In this document: in pieces, positions 33,474 to 64,000 of the stretch
How the letters are laid out: each line of letters begins with the position of its first letter
Position numbering within the stretch: position 1 is the first letter of the stretch
DNA from: Clostridia bacterium
Lineage (GTDB): Bacteria; Bacillota; Clostridia; UMGS1883
Length of the DNA: 64,000 nt
Reading direction: 5' to 3'
Assembly: GCA_045636425.1 (NCBI GenBank)
Contig: JAZTXM010000002.1
Span: 93,951-157,950, forward strand
Notes under the pieces: generated by a model
What the model was told of the DNA's origin: nothing
The model's input: the letters and a program-made list of their open reading frames with translations, nothing else
The model's database searches: none
Translations under genes and position numbers: made by a program

Positions 33474-33582
33474 AAAAGTCCAGATCGCAAAAAGGCAATT
33501 AGCATACAAAATAAAATGCTCGAAAAAACGACTGAACTTTATATTTTGGTTGAAAAATCTCATATTCTTCGATTTTTCTATG

Positions 33583-33686
33583 TTTCTAAGCCTTTTTGCT
33601 ACGAACAAACTTCGCCTCTCGACGTACCCACGTACGCCTTCGGGTAACCCACGGCAAGCCGTGGCTCAGTTTGTCCGTTCTGAATC
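33583..33686 (+). ncRNA. Candidate structured cis-regulatory RNA (unclassified). A closing helix (CGAACAAACT / AGTTTGTCCG) encloses two hairpins (CGTAC-CCAC-GTACG and CCACGGC-AA-GCCGTGG).
   Basis: Nested complementarity read directly from the sequence. Located in the 290-nt leader of the CDS at 33764-34486. No known riboswitch class recognised. Confidence 0.3.
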
Positions 33687-33703
33687 ATTTTTCCTATCCC
33701 CTA

Positions 33704-33750
33704 ATAAAAAGGAGGTGTAAAAAACCGAGTTTTTACACCTCCTTTAATAG
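33704..33750 (+). promoter_or_regulatory. Terminator/attenuator-like hairpin that sequesters an SD-like sequence (GGAGGTGTAAAAA-ACCGAG-TTTTTACACCTCC, then TTTAAT)
   Basis: 13-bp perfect stem 14 nt upstream of the downstream gene's own SD (AGGTGA). The weak U-tract suggests a regulatory rather than constitutive terminator. Confidence 0.4.
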
Positions 33751-34516: not shown

Positions 34517-35206
34517 TTGGATTATAATGCCGCTTTATCTCTGCCGAAGAACTGTGACATCAGGGAGTTTGCAGGGCAGATAACAAGCGAAATTCTTGAC
34601 AAATGCGAACGGAATTTACTATATAAGATTACTAAGAATGAATTCCCCTATACCCCCGAGGGTGACAGGAACCAAATATACAATATAGCATTAAAACATG
34701 CATCGGGGCAGAGCGATGATGTGATGGACACCATTCATTATAACAGGCGAAAAGCACTGATTGAGGAGCGTGCCATTGACTATCTTCGCGAAAACAACTG
34801 CATAATATTAAACGGATTTATAAACTTCAGGTTAGAGGAGTACAAAAACGAATTACGCTCTCTTTGCCATGATGCGGCGGACGAAATGTATGCCCTACGG
34901 GAATATGACGAGTTTTTGAATATGCTACGCTTTTTCGTTTCTGTGCAATCACCAAAGGAAAACACCGTCCATGTATTAAAAAAGAACGGTGTTTTGAGAA
35001 TTGAAAACAAGTGGCATAGGGATATCACAAAATTTTACGCGGAGGAATTTGCTTTTAGCGGTGAAGATTTCACCTCGGAAGATATTGCCTTAAGTGCATT
35101 GATATCAATTTCACCCAGGAAAATTGTTGTTCACGACAATAAGGAAAATGATAAAATATATGAAACACTTTTAAGCGTATTTCCAAATGTAGAGTTTACA
35201 GAATAG
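34517..35206 (+). CDS. Hypothetical protein, possibly YtxC-like sporulation-associated
   Basis: 229 aa with an RBS, no motif confidently recognised. Followed by a bidirectional terminator. Confidence 0.3.
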   Translation: MDYNAALSLPKNCDIREFAGQITSEILDKCERNLLYKITKNEFPYTPEGDRNQIYNIALKHASGQSDDVMDTIHYNRRKALIEERAIDYLRENNCIILNGFINFRLEEYKNELRSLCHDAADEMYALREYDEFLNMLRFFVSVQSPKENTVHVLKKNGVLRIENKWHRDITKFYAEEFAFSGEDFTSEDIALSALISISPRKIVVHDNKENDKIYETLLSVFPNVEFTE

Positions 35207-35208
35207 GA

Positions 35209-35250
35209 AAAGAGACACATTGGGGACAGTCCCCATTGTGTCTCTCTTTT
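35209..35250. terminator. Bidirectional intrinsic terminator (AAGAGACACATTGGGGAC-AG-TCCCCATTGTGTCTCT + T6)
   Basis: Long perfect palindrome between convergent genes. Confidence 0.8.
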
Positions 35251-35778
35251 TTACTTCTTTGGCACTTGAATTTCTCCGGCAAGATTCTTCCATGTGAAGC
35301 ATCCATTCTCCAGCACCATATATCCATGCCAGGAATCCTCTTTTGGAATTGATACCGAACCGGGATTAATGTAGCGAACGCCCTCTTTCACATAATCTAT
35401 CGGAATATGAGTGTGTCCGGACAGGACCATCTCTCCCGGTTGCAGGGCAGGGAAATCATGATGACCATGCGCAGCATAGATTGTCATCCCTTCCCAACAA
35501 AGCAGGGCAGAATCTGACAAAACCGGGAAGTCCAGCATCATCTGGTCTACCTCGGTGTCGCAGTTGCCCCGTACACAAAGGAGCTTTTCTTTGATACCGT
35601 TAAGCATTGCCGCTACCTCTTTGGGTGCATATCCCGCAGGAAGGTTGTTCCGCGGACCATGATAGAGCAAATCCCCCAAGAGCAATACCTTGGCGGGATT
35701 TTCCCTCTCCACTGCTTCCATCAAATGCCGACAATACTCCGCCGATCCATGAATATCCGATGCAATCAATAATTTCAT
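35251..35778 (-). CDS. YfcE-like metallophosphoesterase (phosphodiesterase)
   Basis: Start at MKLLIASDIHG (GGAGG upstream). GDLLYHG, GNCD and GHTH motifs. Confidence 0.8.
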   Translation of the reverse strand: MKLLIASDIHGSAEYCRHLMEAVERENPAKVLLLGDLLYHGPRNNLPAGYAPKEVAAMLNGIKEKLLCVRGNCDTEVDQMMLDFPVLSDSALLCWEGMTIYAAHGHHDFPALQPGEMVLSGHTHIPIDYVKEGVRYINPGSVSIPKEDSWHGYMVLENGCFTWKNLAGEIQVPKK

Positions 35779-35847
35779 AAATTTTTCCTCCGTATTAAAA
35801 TTTGTTTGTACCAAGTTATAATAAAAAAATCAATAATGAATTGCCTT

Positions 35848-38913: not shown

Positions 38914-39537
38914 TCAGTCCAATACATGATTAACTATATAGGGGTTTCCTCTCTTTTCGTCACCGATTGTCGTTCTGACGCCGTGACCGGGAAGCACGGT
39001 TGTTTCTTCGGGAAAGCTTGTGATAAGGAATTTAATAGATTCAAGCTCCATCTTTAAATCCCCGAAATCAAATCTTCCTATGGAATTTTGGAAAAGCAAA
39101 TCTCCGCAGAACAAATTGTCTCCCCACTGATATGTTACGCTACCCGTGCTGTGACCGGGAGTGTGGTATACTTTTATGGTTGTGCTTCCAAGGGGGATTT
39201 CACGCACGTCGTCCAGCAATATATCAGGGGTATACGGCTCTATCTTTTCCCCTGTAAGGAAGCTGAGATTACAGTTGTTATCGAGTAGCATCATCTTATC
39301 TCCGCTGTGGATATAAACCTTTGCCCCTGTTTTTTCGGCAAGGGCAGAGACAGCTCCTATATGGTCAAAATGCCCATGGGTAAGAAGTATTTTTGTAAGT
39401 GCGGCTCCGCTTTCTTCTATTTTCTTTAAAATTAAGTCGGCCTGTGCACCGGGGTCAATCACTGCCGCTTCCCCGTTATCCGTCAGAAGATAGCAATTCA
39501 CACATAGCTGCCCTACCATAATACGCTGTATTTCCAT
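38914..39537 (-). CDS. MBL-fold metallo-hydrolase
   Basis: 207 aa with THGHFDHIG. Confidence 0.8.
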   Translation of the reverse strand: MEIQRIMVGQLCVNCYLLTDNGEAAVIDPGAQADLILKKIEESGAALTKILLTHGHFDHIGAVSALAEKTGAKVYIHSGDKMMLLDNNCNLSFLTGEKIEPYTPDILLDDVREIPLGSTTIKVYHTPGHSTGSVTYQWGDNLFCGDLLFQNSIGRFDFGDLKMELESIKFLITSFPEETTVLPGHGVRTTIGDEKRGNPYIVNHVLD

Positions 39538-39553
39538 TTATATTCATTCCTTT

Positions 39554-39715
39554 AGGCCGAGAGGAGCGAAACCCCATAAGCCTTTAACTTGATTAATTTG
39601 AGCACTTTTCAATTTGTCGTCCTTGAAAGGCGACAGCCTGTCTGCGTCCTCCGCATTGAAATTGCTCTAAATTTCTCTGCGTTTAAGGCTTATGGAGTTC
39701 CACTCCTCTCGGCCT
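39554..39715. repeat. 177-bp intergenic element bounded by about 35-bp imperfect inverted repeats (AGGCCGAGAGGAG...CCATAAGCCTTTAAC / GTTTAAGGCTTATGG...CTCCTCTCGGCCT). MITE-like or a large structured RNA hairpin.
   Basis: The arms are about 85% identical as reverse complements. The element fills the relA-MBL intergenic gap and contains no ORF. Confidence 0.5.
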
Positions 39716-41907
39716 TACTGAACGGTTCTTCTGATATCATGTACGCCGGGAACACGATGCAGTTTCTTTATAATAGCGTCAAGCTGCTGCTTGCTGTCTA
39801 CCTCAATAGTAATGTCAATAAGAGCTGTCCTATCCTTAAGTGCACGTGCATTAGCGGCTATAAGGTTAAGCTTCTGCTCGGAAACAACACCAATAACATC
39901 AGCTAAAATTCCGCTTCTGTTTGTACATTCAATGCTGAGCTCTGTATTAAATGAGGAGGCCACATCATCAAGCCAGTTACATTCTATCATACGCTCACGC
40001 ATATCCTCACTGAGCTTGCTCTCCATGACATTAATGCAGTCGCTTCTGTGTATGCTGACACCTCTGCCGCGGGTAATAAATCCGATAATATCATCACCCG
40101 GGACGGGATTACAGCAACGGGAAAGTCTGACAAGACAGTTATCTACGCCTCGGATTTCTATTCCCACATCACTCTTGGCGTTCTTTTTAGATGCAGTTTT
40201 GGGTGCAAGCTCAGGAACGATTTCTTCCTTATGGTCATTCTGATAGCTGTCACGCAGTCTTGTTACAACCTTTGCCGCAGTAATTCCACCGAAGCCTATT
40301 GCCGCATACATTTCCTCAACGGAAGCAAAGCCGTAGCGCTTAAGCATAGGCTCAAGATATTTATTTTTGAACAAATCACCCTGATTCATTCCCACACGCT
40401 TAAGCTCAGCCTCCACGGCATCTTTTCCGCGTTGAATGTTTACTTCCCTGTTTTCTTTCTTAAAGTAGGAATTGATTTTACTGCGTGCTGTAGAGGTTTT
40501 AACAATTTTCAGCCAGTCACGGCTGGGGCCTTTATTGGAGCTTGAAGTGATTACCTCCACAATATCTCCGTTCTGAAGCTTATAATCAAGGGTTACCATT
40601 TTTGAATTTACCTTGGCACCCGTCATTTTATATCCTACTGCAGAGTGAATATAGAATGCAAAATCTATGGGGCATGAACCTGCCGGAAGTCCTATTACGT
40701 CCCCTCGGGGAGTGAATACAAATACCTCATCGGCAAACATGTCTATTTTAAGAGTTCTCATGAAATCTTCGGGGTCAACCGCTTCGCTCTGGATTTCAAG
40801 AAGCTTGTTTACCCAGTCAAGATTCTTACTGTCGCCCGCTCTTCCCTCTTTGTATTTCCAATGCGCAGCAATACCGCGTTCCGCAACACGGTGCATATCC
40901 CAAGTGCGAATCTGAATTTCAAAGGGCTGACCGTCCGGACCTATAACGGTGGTATGAAGCGACTGGTACATATTAGGCTTGGGCATGGCGATATAATCCT
41001 TGAATCTTCCCGGGATAGGCTTATATTCCTCATGGACAATACCAAGCACCGCATAACATTCAGCCACCGTGTCAACAATTATACGAACTGCAAAAAGGTC
41101 ATATATTTCGTCGAGAGTTTTGTTCTGATTATACATCTTTCTGAAAATCGAATAGATGTGCTTTGCACGGGCGGCAATGTGGCATTTAATACCCATTTCC
41201 TCCATTTTGTCGGCAATAACACCTCTTACGTTCTGCACATACGCATCACGCTCGGACTGCTTTTGTGAAAGTCCGTCAACAATTTCGTAGTACGCTACAC
41301 TGTCAAGATATTTAAGAGCCAAATCCTCAAGCTCAATCTTGATTTTAGATATACCCAGCCTGTAAGCAAGGGGAGCATACACATCTAATGCCTCTTTTGC
41401 CTTTTGGAGCTGTTTTTCGGGCTTCATATGCTTAAGAGTACGCATATTATGAAGCCTGTCTGCAAGCTTTATAAGAACGACACGTATGTCCTCTGCCATT
41501 GCAAAAAACATTTTTCTAAGGTTTTCAATGTGAGCTTCTTCCTTGGAAATACACTTGATTTTATCAAGCTTTGTCACACCTTCAACAAGGAGTGCCACCT
41601 GCTCACCGAATTCCTCTTTCATCACATCGTAGCCATAGTCCGTATCTTCTATAATATCATGCAAAAGACCCGCTACAATTGCCTGAGCATCAAGCTCCAT
41701 TTCCGCCAGGATGCAGGCAACCTCATATGGATGCACAAAATACGGCTCTCCGCTGTGGCGGAGCTGGTCACCGTGCTTTTCTTTGCACAGTGTATAGGCT
41801 TTAAGAATCAGGCCTCTGTCCTCGTCTGCATTTTTATTATATTGTTTTATTTTTTCCATCAAGACTTCAAATGCCTGATCCATAAAATCACTCCCGATTT
41901 CAGCCAT
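39715..41907 (-). CDS. relA: Bifunctional (p)ppGpp synthetase/hydrolase RelA/SpoT
   Basis: 730 aa with HD domain (HGDQLRHSGEPYFVHPYEVA), synthetase, TGS and ACT regions. Confidence 0.95.
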   Translation of the reverse strand: MAEIGSDFMDQAFEVLMEKIKQYNKNADEDRGLILKAYTLCKEKHGDQLRHSGEPYFVHPYEVACILAEMELDAQAIVAGLLHDIIEDTDYGYDVMKEEFGEQVALLVEGVTKLDKIKCISKEEAHIENLRKMFFAMAEDIRVVLIKLADRLHNMRTLKHMKPEKQLQKAKEALDVYAPLAYRLGISKIKIELEDLALKYLDSVAYYEIVDGLSQKQSERDAYVQNVRGVIADKMEEMGIKCHIAARAKHIYSIFRKMYNQNKTLDEIYDLFAVRIIVDTVAECYAVLGIVHEEYKPIPGRFKDYIAMPKPNMYQSLHTTVIGPDGQPFEIQIRTWDMHRVAERGIAAHWKYKEGRAGDSKNLDWVNKLLEIQSEAVDPEDFMRTLKIDMFADEVFVFTPRGDVIGLPAGSCPIDFAFYIHSAVGYKMTGAKVNSKMVTLDYKLQNGDIVEVITSSSNKGPSRDWLKIVKTSTARSKINSYFKKENREVNIQRGKDAVEAELKRVGMNQGDLFKNKYLEPMLKRYGFASVEEMYAAIGFGGITAAKVVTRLRDSYQNDHKEEIVPELAPKTASKKNAKSDVGIEIRGVDNCLVRLSRCCNPVPGDDIIGFITRGRGVSIHRSDCINVMESKLSEDMRERMIECNWLDDVASSFNTELSIECTNRSGILADVIGVVSEQKLNLIAANARALKDRTALIDITIEVDSKQQLDAIIKKLHRVPGVHDIRRTVQ

Positions 41908-45408: not shown

Positions 45409-45410
45409 GA

Positions 45411-45446
45411 ATGAAAAGCAGCGTGGCATTTATTTGCCCGCTGCTT
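45411..45446 (+). terminator. Intrinsic terminator (AAAGCAGCG...CGCTGCTTTTT)
   Basis: Stem-loop followed by a T-tract, directly after the CDS stop. Confidence 0.6.
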
Positions 45447-45548
45447 TTTATTCTCATTTTGATTTTCTGTATTGTCCTTTATCAACAAGACAGCAGAACC
45501 GTCCCCTTGTCCTATCTTTAGACTGTGTCAAAACTGTGCCATTGTTTT

Positions 45549-48128
45549 TTATTTGTTGAATTTTTTCAACAATACCATCATTTCTTCGTATGATATTCCG
45601 TCCTTAATGTATTTGTTAGCAGTTAAATAGCCAACCACTTTTCCGTTCTTATCTAAAATCTTAGGTGGATTTGTAGCATATTCATTAAATACACTATATT
45701 GACTATACTTGCTACCATAATTGCCATATTGGTTGAAAATACTCTTTGTTTGATATATATTACCATAAATTCCATATTCATTAGCAATACTATCTTTATC
45801 ATATTTATTTGAACTTATTTTACCCAAAAATGTTCCTGTTCCATCATCGGCATATAAATATAACGGAAATGATGAAAGCGTTATCTTTGTATTGATTGAA
45901 TAATTTCCGCCACCTTGATAGTTATTTCCGGATTGATAGTTGTTGCCAGATTGGTAATTATTTGTATTATCCTTTATTGGATGCCCGAAATTAACAGAGG
46001 TATATCCAGAAACTGGAACTGTAAAACCGAAATCAGATAGTGATACATTTTTTCCACCCAAGTACGTTTTAATAATATAATCAGTAAAATCTAAACCTTC
46101 CAAACTGCTCATCAATGCCATTACTTTATAAGTTTCAGAATTAGATGTGTCTCCTTCATTTTCAATAAAAGAAATTTTAGAATTTAGATCATAATTGTTT
46201 GGATTTATATAAAACGTTCCCATAAAGTCTGAATTGTTTGTCTGATTTGAACTACTGTAATACGATATCATTGAAAAATAAGATGGTTCATCTGGTGTTA
46301 AGCCAACGTAAGTATAAGAAGTATAGTTACCTCTGTAAATAACTGTTATAGTAATCAAATCTGTTTCTGCATTATAGTCCAACGAATAGTCTTTAAGAGC
46401 ATTACCACTTTCATATCTTTCTCTATACACTTGTTTCCCATTTATTGAGTCGTTGGCGTTACTAATAATAAAACTTTTCAGTTGATTGAAAGCATTTTTT
46501 TGTGATACAGATGAACTATTAAACACAAATGTTAATATATTGCTATCGTCTGATTCAACACCATTTTTAACCGAAGTTACAATAACATTATATCTTTTTC
46601 CATTTTCTAACCCATTATATGAAACTGTATAATCATCACAGTATTCAAACTTTAATTTTTCTCCGTTATCATCTTTATCAAACCAAAAAGTATCTTCGCC
46701 AGCTTCTTGATAATAAAAATGATAATATTCTGCTCCTTCTACTTTATCCCACTGGATATGTGCTGAACCATTTTGCTGTCTTACCACCCGAATGTTTTTA
46801 GGCGGTTCTATTTGAATATTATATCCATTTATAGTAGCAAATTCTTCCATAGTAAACATATTGTATTTACTCTCCATGGTGGAAATTTCATTTTTATTTA
46901 CTACTTCATTGATAGGCACAGCAAAATTAAGATTTTGTCCAGAGGTAAGTGTAGCGGTTGTTATACCTATAACTTCACCGTGAGAATTCAACAATGCACC
47001 CCCACTACTTCCAGGAGAAATTGGTGCAGTAATTTGTATCATTCCATTAAGTTCTTCACGATGTGAGTTTGCAACAATTCCATCTGATATTGAGTTTGCT
47101 AACCCTTGAGGATTTCCAATTGTGTAAATCTTTTCCCCTTCGCTTATCAAATCTGAATCACCAATTTTTATGTATGGAACATTTGTAGCATTCGTTTTAA
47201 TTATTGCATAATCAACCTCTTTATCATAATGCAAAACTCCCATCACTGAATAACTATGAAGTCCTGGGGGGCTAATCATAGCAAAATCAGTTCCTTCAAT
47301 AACATGATAATTGGTAATTGCCAAACCATCACTATTAATAAAAAAGCCACTTCCTACAGTTTGAAGGCCACTTCCATCCCATATAGTAACAGAAAAAACA
47401 GCTGGAGAACAAGCCGCAAATATATCCTCTGGTGTTAAGTTCTCATATGAATTTAATAATTCAGATTGCTTTCGTCCAAATGCATTATGATCATAATTTT
47501 CAATATAATCAGCAGTTGAAAAAACATTTTCTTCCTCTAATTTAAGGTACAGTGGAACTTCCGAATTGTTAATTTTAGCAACTAACGCAGCATAAGAAAT
47601 GGTAACAACATCTGCTCTTAAAAATTTTTCTGTATCAACAAATTGTGGTAACAGTCCAACCTTCTTTGCTAATCCATATGGATTATCCCAGTTAAAATCG
47701 CCATTAGCACCATCGGAATATCCTAATGCTCGCAATACAAAAGTTATATACATTTTAGAATTTGCATTTTCTGTTCCAAATGTTGTAGCAGAAGTTCCTT
47801 TAGTCAACCCGTTTTCATATGCATAACCAACATATTTATCAGCCCAAGTAGGAACATCTGTGAAAGGATGACTGCAGTTACTATTCAAGGCTTCCGCCTC
47901 TTTACCTAATACTCTAATAAGCATAACAAGAGCCTCAACTCTTGTAGGTTCACGATTAAGGTCAAAGTTTGTATCTGACACCCCTTTGAATAATCCAAGA
48001 GCTTTTAAATCTGTAGCTAATTCTTCCTCAAATGAAGTATCTCTTGATGATTGAGCATAAGTACTTTGAGGAATTATGCAGACTATCAAAGTAAAACATA
48101 GAAGTACCGATAAAATTGTTTTTTTCAT
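45549..48128 (-). CDS. Secreted S-layer-homology (SLH)-anchored trypsin-like serine protease with Fn3 domain and a low-complexity C-terminal region
   Basis: Start at MKKTILSVLL (signal peptide). SLH-like repeats (PFTDVPTWADKYVGYAYENGL...ITFVLRALGY; TRVEALVMLIRVLG). S1 protease block GSGFFINSDGLAITNYHV...GNPQGL...PISPGSSGGALLNSHGEVIGITTA. Fn3-like VRQQNGSAHIQWDKVEGAEYYHFYY. Confidence 0.75.
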   Translation of the reverse strand: MKKTILSVLLCFTLIVCIIPQSTYAQSSRDTSFEEELATDLKALGLFKGVSDTNFDLNREPTRVEALVMLIRVLGKEAEALNSNCSHPFTDVPTWADKYVGYAYENGLTKGTSATTFGTENANSKMYITFVLRALGYSDGANGDFNWDNPYGLAKKVGLLPQFVDTEKFLRADVVTISYAALVAKINNSEVPLYLKLEEENVFSTADYIENYDHNAFGRKQSELLNSYENLTPEDIFAACSPAVFSVTIWDGSGLQTVGSGFFINSDGLAITNYHVIEGTDFAMISPPGLHSYSVMGVLHYDKEVDYAIIKTNATNVPYIKIGDSDLISEGEKIYTIGNPQGLANSISDGIVANSHREELNGMIQITAPISPGSSGGALLNSHGEVIGITTATLTSGQNLNFAVPINEVVNKNEISTMESKYNMFTMEEFATINGYNIQIEPPKNIRVVRQQNGSAHIQWDKVEGAEYYHFYYQEAGEDTFWFDKDDNGEKLKFEYCDDYTVSYNGLENGKRYNVIVTSVKNGVESDDSNILTFVFNSSSVSQKNAFNQLKSFIISNANDSINGKQVYRERYESGNALKDYSLDYNAETDLITITVIYRGNYTSYTYVGLTPDEPSYFSMISYYSSSNQTNNSDFMGTFYINPNNYDLNSKISFIENEGDTSNSETYKVMALMSSLEGLDFTDYIIKTYLGGKNVSLSDFGFTVPVSGYTSVNFGHPIKDNTNNYQSGNNYQSGNNYQGGGNYSINTKITLSSFPLYLYADDGTGTFLGKISSNKYDKDSIANEYGIYGNIYQTKSIFNQYGNYGSKYSQYSVFNEYATNPPKILDKNGKVVGYLTANKYIKDGISYEEMMVLLKKFNK
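45911..45964 (-). repeat. Three tandem imperfect 18-nt repeats encoding (N-N-Y-Q-S/G-G)x3 within the protease C-terminal region
   Basis: Direct repeats visible in both nucleotide and protein (NNYQSGNNYQSGNNYQGGGNY). Confidence 0.7.
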
Positions 48129-48224
48129 GAGAATAACCATTCCTTTCACAATGTTAATAAATATAAAAAAGTGCATAGTCCCTATATCAGAACTATGCAC
48201 CGAAAAACACACAAATCTGGTATA

Positions 48225-48375
48225 AGGTTGCTAGACTCTTATATTACTCGCATCTTATACAGAGAAGTTTTACCAGATAGTATGCTTTTGCCATTAGCAT
48301 ACTTCTTCTGTATAAAAATAATGCGAGACCTACAAGAAATTACAATAACTCCATTATATTTTAGAGTCTAGCATA
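48225..48375 (-). repeat. Long imperfect nested inverted repeat in the protease 5' leader/promoter region (GCTAGACTCT...AGAGTCTAGC; CTCGCAT...ATGCGAG; AGTATGC...GCATACT)
   Basis: Three nested complementary segment pairs read from the sequence. AT-rich region with no ORF. Confidence 0.4.
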
Positions 48376-48441
48376 TATATTATAACACAGCTTTACCTAT
48401 ATGTAAATATCTTTGAACAAATTTACAAAAATTCAACGACC

Positions 48442-48484
48442 AAAAAAACGACAAGTATTGAATCATCAATCCTTGTCGTTTTTA
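48442..48484 (-). terminator. Intrinsic terminator of the S1-domain gene (minus strand: ACGACAAGG...CTTGTCGT + U7)
   Basis: Stem-loop followed by a U-tract, in minus-strand orientation. Confidence 0.75.
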
Positions 48485-48493
48485 CATTTTCCC

Positions 48494-62506: not shown

Positions 62507-62516
62507 AAACTATATT

Positions 62517-62560
62517 AAAAAAGCAAAACAGGTGTGACGGTCACACCTGTTTTGCTTTTT
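62517..62560 (+). terminator. Intrinsic terminator after upp
   Basis: AAAAGCAAAACAGGTGTGAC-G-GTCACACCTGTTTTGCTTTTTT. Confidence 0.85.
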
Positions 62561-62587
62561 TAATATAATAAATAGTGGAGGTGTTAT

Positions 62588-63391
62588 ATGGATAACTATG
62601 TCTTTATGGCACTGCTTGCAACCCTCGGCACATGGTTTGTAACTGCACTGGGGGCGGCGACGGTTGCCTTTTTCAAATCTCCTAATCCTAAAATTTTAAA
62701 TCTGATGCTGGGATTTGCATCAGGGGTTATGATAGCGGCAAGCTTCTGGTCACTTCTTCAGCCTGCCATAGAACGGGCGGAGGCTATTTCTGCCTTGCCT
62801 TCCTATTTTGTTGCAACAACAGGCTTTTTGCTGGGAGCCATTTTCATGTGGCTTTCCGACAAAGCCGTTTCTTTCGCAAGAAAAAAAGCCGATAATGCTC
62901 AGGGAGAAACAAGTGAGAAGCTTAATCGCATTATCATGCTTATTCTTTCAATTACATTACACAATATCCCCGAAGGGCTGGCAGTGGGGGTTGCCTTTGG
63001 TGCATTGGGAAGCGGAAACTTCAGTACAGAGGCACTTATGGGCGCAATCACAATTGCAGTCGGTATAGGACTGCAAAATTTTCCCGAAGGGGCGGCGGTT
63101 TCTCTGCCACTTCGGAGAGAGGGCTATTCAAGAAAGAAGTGCTTTCTATGCGGTCAGGCATCGGGAATGGTGGAGCCATTTGCAGGGGTTTTGGGTGCCT
63201 GCCTGGTGGTATACATGGAAAAAATTTTACCCTATGCTCTTTCATTTGCCGCAGGCGCCATGATTTTAGTTGCTGTGCATGAGCTTATCCCTGAATGTCA
63301 GCGAGAAAGAAAATGCCACCCCTATTTTTCCACAATGGGAATTATATCGGGCTTTGCGGTGATGATGCTCCTTGATGTGATGCTGGGTTAA
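62588..63391 (+). CDS. ZIP-family metal (zinc) transporter
   Basis: 267 aa. HNIPEGLAVG and HELIPE metal-binding TM motifs. Confidence 0.85.
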   Translation: MDNYVFMALLATLGTWFVTALGAATVAFFKSPNPKILNLMLGFASGVMIAASFWSLLQPAIERAEAISALPSYFVATTGFLLGAIFMWLSDKAVSFARKKADNAQGETSEKLNRIIMLILSITLHNIPEGLAVGVAFGALGSGNFSTEALMGAITIAVGIGLQNFPEGAAVSLPLRREGYSRKKCFLCGQASGMVEPFAGVLGACLVVYMEKILPYALSFAAGAMILVAVHELIPECQRERKCHPYFSTMGIISGFAVMMLLDVMLG

Positions 63392-63419
63392 AATTAAGGC
63401 GTAAAAAAGCTGAGCTTTT

Positions 63420-64000
63420 TTACGCCTTAATTTTAACCCATGTATTGGGAACAGGAGCTTCGATAATTATATCTTCACCCGTAAGCGGATGGGGAAAGCT
63501 TATTTTTCTGCAATGAAGGCACATAAATTCTTCGTTTGAATTTCCGTACAGGCTATCACCATATATGGGACAGCCCATATGGTTCATATGCACTCTTAGC
63601 TGATGTGTTCTGCCTGTAATGGGAATAAGTCTTACCAAAGAATATTTTCCGTCCGTATTTAAAACCTCGTATTTTGTATTGGCTTCTTTTCCGGAAGATG
63701 AAACAATTCGCCGCATGGAGTTTTCTTCTTTCTTTATGGGCACATTTATCTCGCCCACGGACGCACTGAGAGACCCCTTTACAACCGCAATATATTCCTT
63801 TTGAATTTCCTTTCGCTTCATCAAATCCGTCAGAAGTGCCGCTGCATGCGAGTTTTTTGCCGCAAGCAGCACACCTGTGGTATCTTTGTCAAGACGGGTT
63901 ATTATGTGCCCCGCATAGCCCATGTAATATTTCAGTGCATTTGCCAAAGTATCATTCTGATGCAGGCGTGAGGGATGCGACGGCATGGCGAAGGGCTTAT
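63420..64000 (-). CDS. RluA-family pseudouridine synthase (partial; N-terminus lies beyond the window end)
   Basis: RLDKDTTGVLL catalytic Asp motif and HQLRVH. The ORF is open to the window edge. Confidence 0.7.
   Translation of the reverse strand, partial: KPFAMPSHPSRLHQNDTLANALKYYMGYAGHIITRLDKDTTGVLLAAKNSHAAALLTDLMKRKEIQKEYIAVVKGSLSASVGEINVPIKKEENSMRRIVSSSGKEANTKYEVLNTDGKYSLVRLIPITGRTHQLRVHMNHMGCPIYGDSLYGNSNEEFMCLHCRKISFPHPLTGEDIIIEAPVPNTWVKIKA

Follow-up and report, generated by a model that had tools for sequence, protein, structure and literature searches.

The gap between a relA/spoT-family gene and a downstream MBL-fold hydrolase gene in a MAG contig from uncultured gut Clostridia raises the question of what kind of element occupies it and how it came to lie there. 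The analysis is based on a 64-kb stretch of DNA (the window), in which both genes are located on the minus strand. The upstream cistron (39715–41883) encodes a 722-aa (p)ppGpp synthetase-hydrolase, assigned by Pfam and 100% identical to the 722-aa protein P0121 (the version in the list of open reading frames reaches 41907), and the downstream cistron (38914–39537) encodes the MBL-fold hydrolase, assigned by Pfam and identical to P0261. The gap between them spans 39538–39714, i.e., 177 nt, and the operon neighbours on the same strand are separated by just 1–16 nt. The apparent operon order is recJ-relA-MBL-radical SAM-PRK, within which the element would be passively co-transcribed. The initial annotation noted that dtd is missing between relA and MBL; a link between its absence and the element is wrong for this clade, as MBL directly follows relA in the relatives as well.

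The inverted-repeat element described in this gap is real, and both 35-nt arms are present exactly as first written. The best-defined boundaries are GGCC...GGCC at 39555–39714, which delimit an inserted, non-coding, imperfect palindrome of 160 nt on the minus strand, with terminal repeats of the GGCCGAGAGGAG... type. The terminal arms of 34–35 nt are identical at 31 of 35 positions (89%), slightly above the figure of about 85% given earlier, and a repeat finder placed the inverted-repeat arms at 39547–39588 and 39681–39722, 92 nt apart. Palindromy had been ascribed to the ends, where it is indeed found, but the whole 160-nt unit is imperfectly palindromic, the sequence and its reverse complement being 71% identical across 166 nt. 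In the sense RNA, the 5′ arm of the hairpin, GGCCGAGAGGAGUGGAACUCCAUAAGCCUUAAAC (39681–39714), directly follows the relA stop codon, with which the arm overlaps as initially stated, yet by one base only. It pairs with the 3′ arm, GUUAAAGGCUUAUGGGGUUUCGCUCCUCUCGGCC (39555–39588), in a stem of 31 uninterrupted pairs, 3 of which are G·U, and the 92-nt core between the arms (39589–39680) extends the imperfect palindrome and is capped by two small, unlike hairpins in the minimum-free-energy structures. The element is flanked by TAA direct repeats, which read TTA on the plus strand: the upstream copy is the relA stop codon itself (39715–39717), the downstream copy lies at 39552–39554, and the two constitute a putative target-site duplication of TA or TAA. 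Beyond the downstream copy lies the native 14-nt spacer, AGGAAUGAAUAUAA (39538–39551), containing the MBL Shine-Dalgarno sequence AGGA. Furthermore, an imperfect 9-nt direct repeat is formed by AGGAGUGGA within the 5′ arm (39699–39707) and AGGAAUGAA (39543–39551). The GC content of the element is 47.5%, that of the window 40.6%. Apart from a spurious antisense frame, its sole open reading frame has 15 codons and lacks a Shine-Dalgarno sequence. Neither an MBL protein extended in frame nor a small peptide was accepted as an explanation, because of the wrong frame or the lack of a Shine-Dalgarno sequence.

The inverted repeat is far beyond chance. It is the sole repeat of such size and range in the 64 kb, and the folding energies are −95.2 kcal/mol for the sense-strand RNA (z = −12; none of 200 shuffled sequences folded as well), −77.9 kcal/mol for the antisense RNA, and −51.8 kcal/mol for the element as DNA (z = −11.7). 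The MBL Shine-Dalgarno sequence stays outside the 31-pair stem. Promoter-like sites were absent from both strands of the element, as were terminator-like sites, which suggests that the element is probably co-transcribed with the operon as a hairpin of about −95 kcal/mol. An intrinsic terminator was rejected owing to the absence of a U tract, the stem being followed by UAAAGGAAUG on the sense strand and by UUACUGAACGG on the antisense strand. Known structured RNAs were likewise rejected: no Rfam match was obtained for 39300–39960 at E values up to 10 or for the whole window at the gathering score, a search for tRNA and tmRNA genes yielded none, and the element is absent from the orthologous position in 17 loci. 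The small RNA proposed in the initial annotation, whether carrying its own promoter or conserved as an RNA, is not borne out, given that neither strand has a promoter, no Rfam family matches, and the relatives show no conservation. Two further candidates were discarded, i.e., REP/BIME sequences, which are 20–40-nt GC-rich units in many copies, since a single 160-nt unit is present here and its parts are unrepeated elsewhere, and an integron attC site, since on inspection the termini are GGCCGAG/CTCGGCC and not RYYYAAC/GTTRRRY core sites; the only GTT/AAC-like motifs in the element, CTTAAAC and GTTAAAG, are internal and off the attC consensus.

The origin of the gap is indicated by the orthologous loci. 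The comparison of relA-downstream regions that had been suggested at the outset points to an insertion: the element is absent from all 17 orthologous loci examined, in which the relA-MBL spacer is 5, 10, 14, 19, or 21 nt long, as against 177 nt here. When 39555–39714 and one TAA are excised, the sequence reads TAA|AGGAATGAATATAA|ATG, and the rebuilt spacer, AGGAATGAATATAA, corresponds in length and register to the type-B spacer, AGGATTGAGTAAAA, of four loci (L005, L006, L093, and L102), to whose complete spacers 39538–39551 is homologous. It is also identical at 14 of 14 positions to the 3′ part of the spacer in L007. A genome scan queried with MBL returned, among the matches listed, mainly distant relatives (at most 65% identity) and one usable outgroup (L013), the spacer of which is B-like. 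Removal of the element with one TAA thus restores the presumptive ancestral 14-nt spacer, and comparison of these sequences strongly supports an insertion relative to every sampled relative. The target would have been the relA stop codon, at its TA(A), in an allele with the original 14-nt relA-MBL spacer, and TA or TAA would have been duplicated.

Several relatives carry a 21-nt type-A spacer, which may preserve a trace of the same event. Of its first 16 nt, 13 coincide with the element terminus when the register is fixed (p = 2e-4 in a composition-preserving permutation). A deletion between the imperfect 9-nt direct repeats of the full allele would produce such a spacer, and the predicted product, GGCCGAGAGGAGTGGATATAA, agrees with the observed type-A sequence, GGCAGGGAGGAGCGGATATAA, in 18 of 21 bases and is of equal length. 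The first bases of the type-A spacer would then be the element terminus, now serving as the MBL ribosome-binding site (GGGAGGAG). Because the type-A spacer matches the predicted deletion product, the element is likely to have had a wider distribution in the past. The insertion itself is likely both old and unstable, and appears to have been lost by deletion in several related lineages; the evidence for this model consists of 21 nt, part of which is a Shine-Dalgarno-like motif that could have arisen by convergence. An insertion that struck a type-A spacer and duplicated 9 bp was rejected, as it needs a coincidental 19-nt insert end complementary to the host flank.

Further copies and a parent IS were sought at several scales. 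With 13-mers and 15-mers from the arms and up to 2 mismatches, the only matches in the 64-kb window were the two arms themselves, and blastn and nhmmer detected no second copy in approximately 1.6 Mb of fetched loci, including approximately 130 kb from close relatives. A 21-mer query from either arm, exact but degenerate at three wobble positions, had no match in 185,579 species-representative genomes or in viral contigs, and its 5 matches in JGI metagenomes were all chance occurrences in high-GC coding sequences, without extension. In viral contigs, an inner-arm 19-mer gave one chance match and a gapped two-arm pattern gave none; blastn in distant mode against plasmids and phages yielded nothing significant, and a full-text literature search with the terminal 12-mer retrieved unrelated mammalian primers alone. 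IS ends matching the arms were found neither in the window nor in the fetched loci or sequence collections, and no transposase was present among the scanned open reading frames, i.e., those adjoining the element and those specific to the window. Since neither a second copy nor a transposase or IS with matching ends was recovered, we infer mobility from one insertion site.

We regard the element as an orphan MITE-like insertion. It is probably a non-autonomous palindromic insertion of 160 bp with 34–35-bp terminal inverted repeats, placed at the relA stop codon, with TA or TAA duplicated there. The proposal of a MITE-like insertion accordingly stands as regards the insertion, based on the 17 empty loci and the exact rebuilding of the empty site; dispersed copies were looked for and none was found in the sequences searched. 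MITEs are defined as elements of 50–800 bp with terminal inverted repeats of at least 10–15 bp and target duplications of 2–10 bp (PMC11602168), and in described families a genome may contain anything between 1 copy and hundreds (PMC10969869). The present element has 160 nt and no transposase gene, its terminal inverted repeats agree at 31 of 35 positions, and a putative target duplication is accompanied by empty sites, with a boundary that is ambiguous between TA and TAA. Taken alone, a 3-nt TAA repeat in an A+T-rich spacer is weak evidence of a target duplication. A duplicated TA would point to an IS630-like transposase as the mobilising enzyme, a duplicated TAA to an IS5-like one. In the mRNA, the element would fold into a single long hairpin that returns the relA stop codon to the side of the MBL Shine-Dalgarno sequence; as the ends of the hairpin lie side by side, the stop codon would stand beside the Shine-Dalgarno sequence, which would explain why the insertion was tolerated. 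The perfect 31-bp stem is also a potential substrate for RNase III. Processing of the hairpin by this enzyme is structurally plausible, given also the tight operon and the absence of promoters and terminators from the element, and a cut could make the stability of one cistron independent of that of the other, as with Correia elements.

A different emphasis is placed on the same hairpin if it is an exapted RNA structure kept by selection, i.e., an RNase III site, a stabiliser that separates the relA and MBL cistrons, or a structure that maintains translational coupling. This reading is unlikely, albeit with several observations in its favour. The stem has 31 uninterrupted pairs and leaves the MBL Shine-Dalgarno sequence outside, and the sense fold is the stronger one (−95.2 versus −77.9 kcal/mol). 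All three transition differences between the arms form G·U pairs in the sense RNA, where the antisense RNA would have A-C mismatches, and two of these transitions, when polarised by the type-A sequence, are derived with pairing kept. Moreover, if type A is a scar, the element predates splits of dS 0.33–0.61, yet its arms differ at just 4 of 35 positions. However, three of three wobbles on the sense strand correspond to p of about 0.125, all three are C-to-U on the coding strand, as a transcription-associated deamination bias would likewise produce, and a single sequence permits no covariation test. Furthermore, the short spacers of the clade show much stronger conservation than synonymous sites do (for instance, L005 and L102 share one sequence, and a single position out of 21 distinguishes L001 from L002), which makes the dating unreliable. 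Alleles may also move by recombination, as the trees of the relA 3′ part and of MBL disagree. The loss of the element from most lineages speaks against an important function.

Selection may also be combined with the deletion model, in that an ancient insertion would have met two fates: retention here as a selected mRNA hairpin of approximately 160 nt, and reduction in the sister lineages to a 21-nt scar, the terminal-repeat sequence of which was recruited as the MBL Shine-Dalgarno sequence. The selected hairpin could in this case be a processing or stability element, or could keep the stop codon next to the ribosome-binding site. The combination is, on balance, improbable.

A locally made palindrome, generated when replication template switching or fold-back synthesis at a type-A spacer (GGCAGGGAGGAGCGG...) copied native sequence in inverted form, such that the outer 16 nt of the 5′ arm are native, is quite doubtful. 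The first 16 nt past the relA stop codon do resemble the type-A spacer (13/16), and the lack of family members elsewhere would fit a local origin, but neither the window nor the related loci contain a source for the inner approximately 125 nt, the arms have mismatches, and the core lacks palindromy. The model also leaves the TAA and the complete type-B 3′ flank unexplained, whereas a simple insertion into a type-B spacer accounts for both, and the outgroup and outer lineages carry the B spacer, not A. Lastly, an assembly artefact, namely a chimeric or fold-back join in a metagenome-assembled contig whose allele has been seen once, is very improbable, since artefactual fold-backs are perfect inverted copies of adjacent sequence whereas the arms here have 4 mismatches and the core is unique, the flanks run in the correct register into relA and MBL, and independent assemblies contain the type-A scar, which likewise speaks for a real element.

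The MITE-like insertion is a real and fairly ordinary feature, in view of its resemblance to a small non-coding transposon of which no second copy was found, and leaves the current picture of relA operons and MITEs unchanged. If it is a MITE, it is an undescribed element from an uncultured lineage of gut Clostridia in which such elements have hardly been catalogued, and it would flag an IS family to seek. The evolutionary point is more instructive, as one locus appears to offer three states, being empty, occupied by the full element, or reduced to a deletion scar. The full element represents a long hairpin within a tight operon, with the stop codon still adjoining the downstream ribosome-binding site, and where the scar is left, the terminus of a selfish element has apparently been turned into the ribosome-binding site of a housekeeping gene.

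Like bacterial MITEs in general, the element is small, non-coding, and intergenic, has terminal inverted repeats, a TA/TAA repeat, and the potential to form a full-length hairpin, and is matched by empty sites in relatives; unlike them, it was found as a single copy with no parent IS. Correia elements of Neisseria are co-transcribed MITEs of about 104–157 bp (PMC10969869, PMC3184786), and RNase III cuts them at the inverted repeats, while ERIC elements alter mRNA decay (PMC10969869). As in both systems, the present element lies inside a transcription unit, co-transcription being suggested by gene spacing and by the absence of promoters and terminators. It resembles Correia elements in size, in its long paired terminal repeats, in its TA-containing duplication, and in a stem long enough for RNase III, and the proposed mode of action is the same; it differs in having no apparent sequence relationship to them, a host from a different phylum, no family of copies, and cleavage that is conjectural. 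ERIC/IRU sequences of Enterobacteriaceae are imperfect palindromes of about 127 bp in transcribed intergenic regions (PMC10969869). They share with the present element a full-length imperfect palindrome, a position between co-transcribed genes, and presence or absence among close relatives, but they show no apparent sequence similarity to it, number tens to hundreds of copies per genome, and exert their effect through an RNase E site. Many Firmicutes rely on RNase J and RNase Y instead of RNase E. RUP of Streptococcus pneumoniae is a 107-bp MITE with a TA duplication, thought to be mobilised by an element of the IS630 family. The element described here has no apparent sequence similarity to RUP, and neither a copy family nor an IS630-like partner was seen. 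With RUP, which provides a comparison among small MITEs (PMC3184786), it nevertheless shares a Firmicutes host, small size, terminal inverted repeats, and a TA target.

The gap between relA and the MBL hydrolase gene is located in a tight same-strand block comprising recJ, relA, MBL, a radical-SAM protein and a PRK-like kinase, in which all intercistronic gaps are 1-16 nt with the sole exception of the relA–MBL gap (39538-39714, 177 nt), where the inverted repeat is found. The relA/SpoT-family bifunctional gene (ORF 39715-41907, minus strand) encodes HD_4, RelA_SpoT, TGS, and ACT domains, and, taken from the start at 41883 (722 aa), it shows 100% identity to the database protein P0121; the MBL-fold hydrolase downstream comprises 207 aa (38914-39537, minus strand). 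The lack of dtd, pointed out in the initial annotation as a peculiarity of this gap, is unrelated to the element and represents the normal state of the clade: relA is directly followed by MBL throughout, with dtd between them in none of the relatives.

The inverted repeat was confirmed by a repeat finder (arms at 39547-39588 and 39681-39722, 92 nt between them) and by folding, and the two 35-nt arms proposed earlier were found verbatim, agreeing at 31/35 positions. No second long-range inverted repeat of comparable size exists within the 64 kb. The sense (minus-strand) RNA of the element is folded into one long hairpin (-95.2 kcal/mol, z = -12; 0/200 shuffles equal), and the element as DNA yields a fold of -51.8 kcal/mol (z = -11.7). 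Self-complementarity spans the whole unit, which is 71% identical over 166 nt to the complementary strand read in reverse; the entire element, beyond its ends, is an imperfect palindrome. A chance palindrome, a REP/BIME, and an integron attC site were each ruled out by membership tests. A 105-codon TTG-initiated ORF (39589-39906, plus strand), beginning within the element and running antisense into relA, is without support and almost certainly spurious.

Contigs of related genomes were obtained via the closest MBL and RelA homologues in the protein database, and the relA–MBL spacer was readable at 17 loci, none of which carries the element (0/17); this comparison of relA-downstream regions, which the initial annotation had suggested, speaks against a conserved RNA. 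Briefly, a 14-nt spacer (AGGATTGAGTAAAA or AGGATTGAATAAAA; type B) is found in L005, L006, L093, and L102, a 19-nt form (ATAAAAGGAATGAATATAA; B') in L007, a 21-nt spacer (GGCAGGGAGGAGCGGATATAA and close variants; type A) in L001-L004, L094, and L097-L100, a 5-nt spacer (GCTAA) with an altered relA end in L095 and L096, and a 10-nt B-like spacer (GGAATTTATT) in the outgroup L013, the MBL of which is 65% identical. Type B is likely the ancestral state, since it occurs in the outgroup and in the outer lineage L102. The sense strand reads relA...CAG TAA, GGCCGAG...160 nt...CTCGGCC, TAA AGGAATGAATATAA, ATG...MBL, and when the 160 nt are taken out together with one TAA, what remains is TAA AGGAATGAATATAA ATG, a type-B spacer of correct length and register that matches the 3' part of the L007 spacer at 14/14 positions. 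This places the ends of the element at GGCC...GGCC (39555-39714), with TAA repeated directly on its two sides and the relA stop codon serving as one of the two copies; since the boundary can be shifted by one base, the duplication could be TA or TAA. Judged from these alignments, the element is an insertion and not a conserved element.

In this clade, small rearrangements cluster at the relA–MBL junction. In L007 (177-196), which of the alleles sampled is the nearest to the window at the relA 3' end, the type-B spacer has five extra bases exactly at the insertion point (TAA ATAAA AGGAATG..., with a doubled TAAA). They could be the footprint of an excision or deletion that left the target duplication in both its copies; alternatively, an indel of independent origin may have occurred in A-rich sequence. 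Furthermore, the relA 3' end is rewritten in L095 (4970-5000) and L096 (2834-2864) to ...AGAAGAACGGTAGGGTAAGCTAA ATG, with the stop codon displaced and only 5 nt from the MBL start.

Directly after the stop codon, the type-A spacer matches the element terminus over its first 16 nt at 13/16 positions in fixed register (composition-preserving permutation test, p = 2e-4). An imperfect 9-nt direct repeat is present as AGGAGTGGA at element positions 8-16 (39699-39707) and as AGGAATGAA at the start of the native spacer (39543-39551), and deletion between the two copies is predicted to yield GGCCGAGAGGAGTGGATATAA, which agrees with the observed type A at 18/21 bases, both being 21 nt long. Type A is thus somewhat more probably than otherwise a scar, left either by this element or by a sister insertion at that site, and the kept terminal-repeat sequence GGGAGGAG would now be the MBL Shine-Dalgarno in those lineages, the inference resting on 21 nt with that Shine-Dalgarno-like motif included. 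The element was probably once more widespread and would later have been reduced in relatives to a scar serving as a ribosome-binding site. The neighbour-joining tree of the relA 3' end conflicts with that of MBL, and type A is not monophyletic; therefore, alleles have been shuffled by recombination, and the order of events is unreadable from the tree.

Retention of the element by selection as an exapted functional hairpin is unlikely. Three of the four arm differences are transitions, and all three pair as G.U in the sense RNA but would be mismatched as A-C in the antisense RNA, which folds at only -77.9 kcal/mol; however, for a given strand, finding the wobbles on it in all three cases has p ~0.125, and the transitions are all C-to-U on the coding strand, as transcription-associated deamination would also give. 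Two of these transitions (element positions 13 and 15), with the type-A scar as outgroup, are derived and preserve pairing. Provided that the scar model is right, the element is older than lineage splits with dS 0.33-0.61, and four arm differences are fewer than expected from neutral decay, although this dating is soft because recombination occurs among alleles and the short spacers of the clade are far better conserved than synonymous positions. Moreover, the element has been lost from most lineages. Local formation of the palindrome by template switching at a type-A spacer is improbable: it would account for the 16 nt common to the element and type A, but leaves unexplained the complete TAA and type-B spacer on the other flank and the unique inner 125 nt, and does not fit an apparently ancestral type B. 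An assembly artefact is highly improbable in view of the imperfect arms, the unique core, the flanks continuing in register on either side, and the putative element-derived scar in independent assemblies.

Within the inserted element, neither a sigma-70-like promoter nor an intrinsic terminator was detected on either strand, the stem is followed by UAAAGGAAUG with no U tract, and no Rfam family matched. An intrinsic terminator and an sRNA gene were accordingly rejected, the latter having been an option of the initial annotation. With no promoter, terminator, or Rfam match, the element should therefore be transcribed within, and carried as part of, the operon mRNA. The predicted stem begins immediately downstream of the relA stop codon and stops three bases before the native Shine-Dalgarno AGGA; once closed, it would hold the stop codon as near the MBL ribosome-binding site as in the ancestral 14-nt spacer. 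Such proximity offers a simple reason why an operon so tightly packed, and possibly translationally coupled, may have tolerated the insertion. RNase III requires roughly two helical turns of double-stranded RNA, so the predicted lower stem of 31 uninterrupted pairs is long enough, and RNase III processing is plausible.

Other segments of variable presence and structured spacers were observed in the window or in relatives, and small structured insertions in operon spacers may be recurrent in this clade. The radical-SAM/PRK spacer of L102 (7061-7202, GCA_045545055.1) is 142 nt long, where other relatives have 7-8 nt and the window 1 nt, and comprises two direct copies of CGTAGGTGCAACAAAAATTGCCCYGTCCCC and an inverted partial copy, GGGGAAGGGGCAATTTTTGT. 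This small repeat differs from the element and looks REP/BIME-like; neither the window nor any other locus compared contains it. In the window, a ~3.1-kb segment (45409-48493) between the 130-aa gene adjoining the choloylglycine hydrolase gene and an S1-domain gene is replaced by 42 nt in L097; it encodes a protein of 887 aa (45549-48212, minus strand) in which SLH, trypsin-like peptidase, and fibronectin type III domains were recognized. The region 35200-35845, between the PRK-like kinase gene and ytxC, contains a gene (35251-35814, minus strand) for a calcineurin-like metallophosphoesterase of 187 aa; L097 lacks it and has 100 nt there. Within the intergenic region 33474-33750 (~280 nt versus 58 nt in L097), a self-complementary stretch rich in GC (~33590-33690) precedes a perfect bidirectional terminator-like hairpin of 16 bp (33708-33745); the region has no Rfam match and could be an unannotated small RNA or a further insertion. 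A ZIP-family transporter gene (62588-63391) has a perfect 57-nt palindrome on each side (62511-62567 and 63384-63440; 28-nt arms with 100% complementarity). The two differ from each other and look like unusually long bidirectional terminators, with A/T runs within the symmetry.

The MITE-like insertion envisaged in the initial annotation is borne out as to insertion and anatomy (17 element-free loci, TAA flanks); the dispersed copies were not found in the collections searched. No second copy occurs within the 64-kb window or in ~1.6 Mb of related loci, including ~130 kb from close relatives. No exact match to a 21-mer of either arm occurs in 185,579 representative genomes or in viral contigs, and the only matches in JGI metagenomes are five chance ones, all inside high-GC genes; plasmid and phage collections gave no significant match to the element. 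More than one copy is the hallmark of MITEs, and only the relA–MBL copy turned up across the window, the related loci, and the collections searched. However, MITE families may have a single copy in some strains, MITEAba12 ranging from 1 to 22 per genome (PMC10969869), so that a single visible copy is compatible with a MITE and does not prove one. The element is a genuine palindromic insertion of MITE-like type, specific to this lineage and located at the relA stop codon in the MAG of an uncultured gut Clostridia bacterium. Its stem may be likened to the Correia elements of Neisseria, which RNase III cleaves in exactly this manner, and ERIC elements change mRNA decay (PMC10969869). Prokaryotic MITEs are 50-800 bp long, with inverted repeats of at least 10-15 bp and duplications of 2-10 bp (PMC11602168); the element, being 160 bp long and non-coding, with 34-35-bp terminal inverted repeats, a 2-3-bp duplication, and empty sites in relatives, agrees with this anatomy and is a new example, single-copy so far, of a known element kind.
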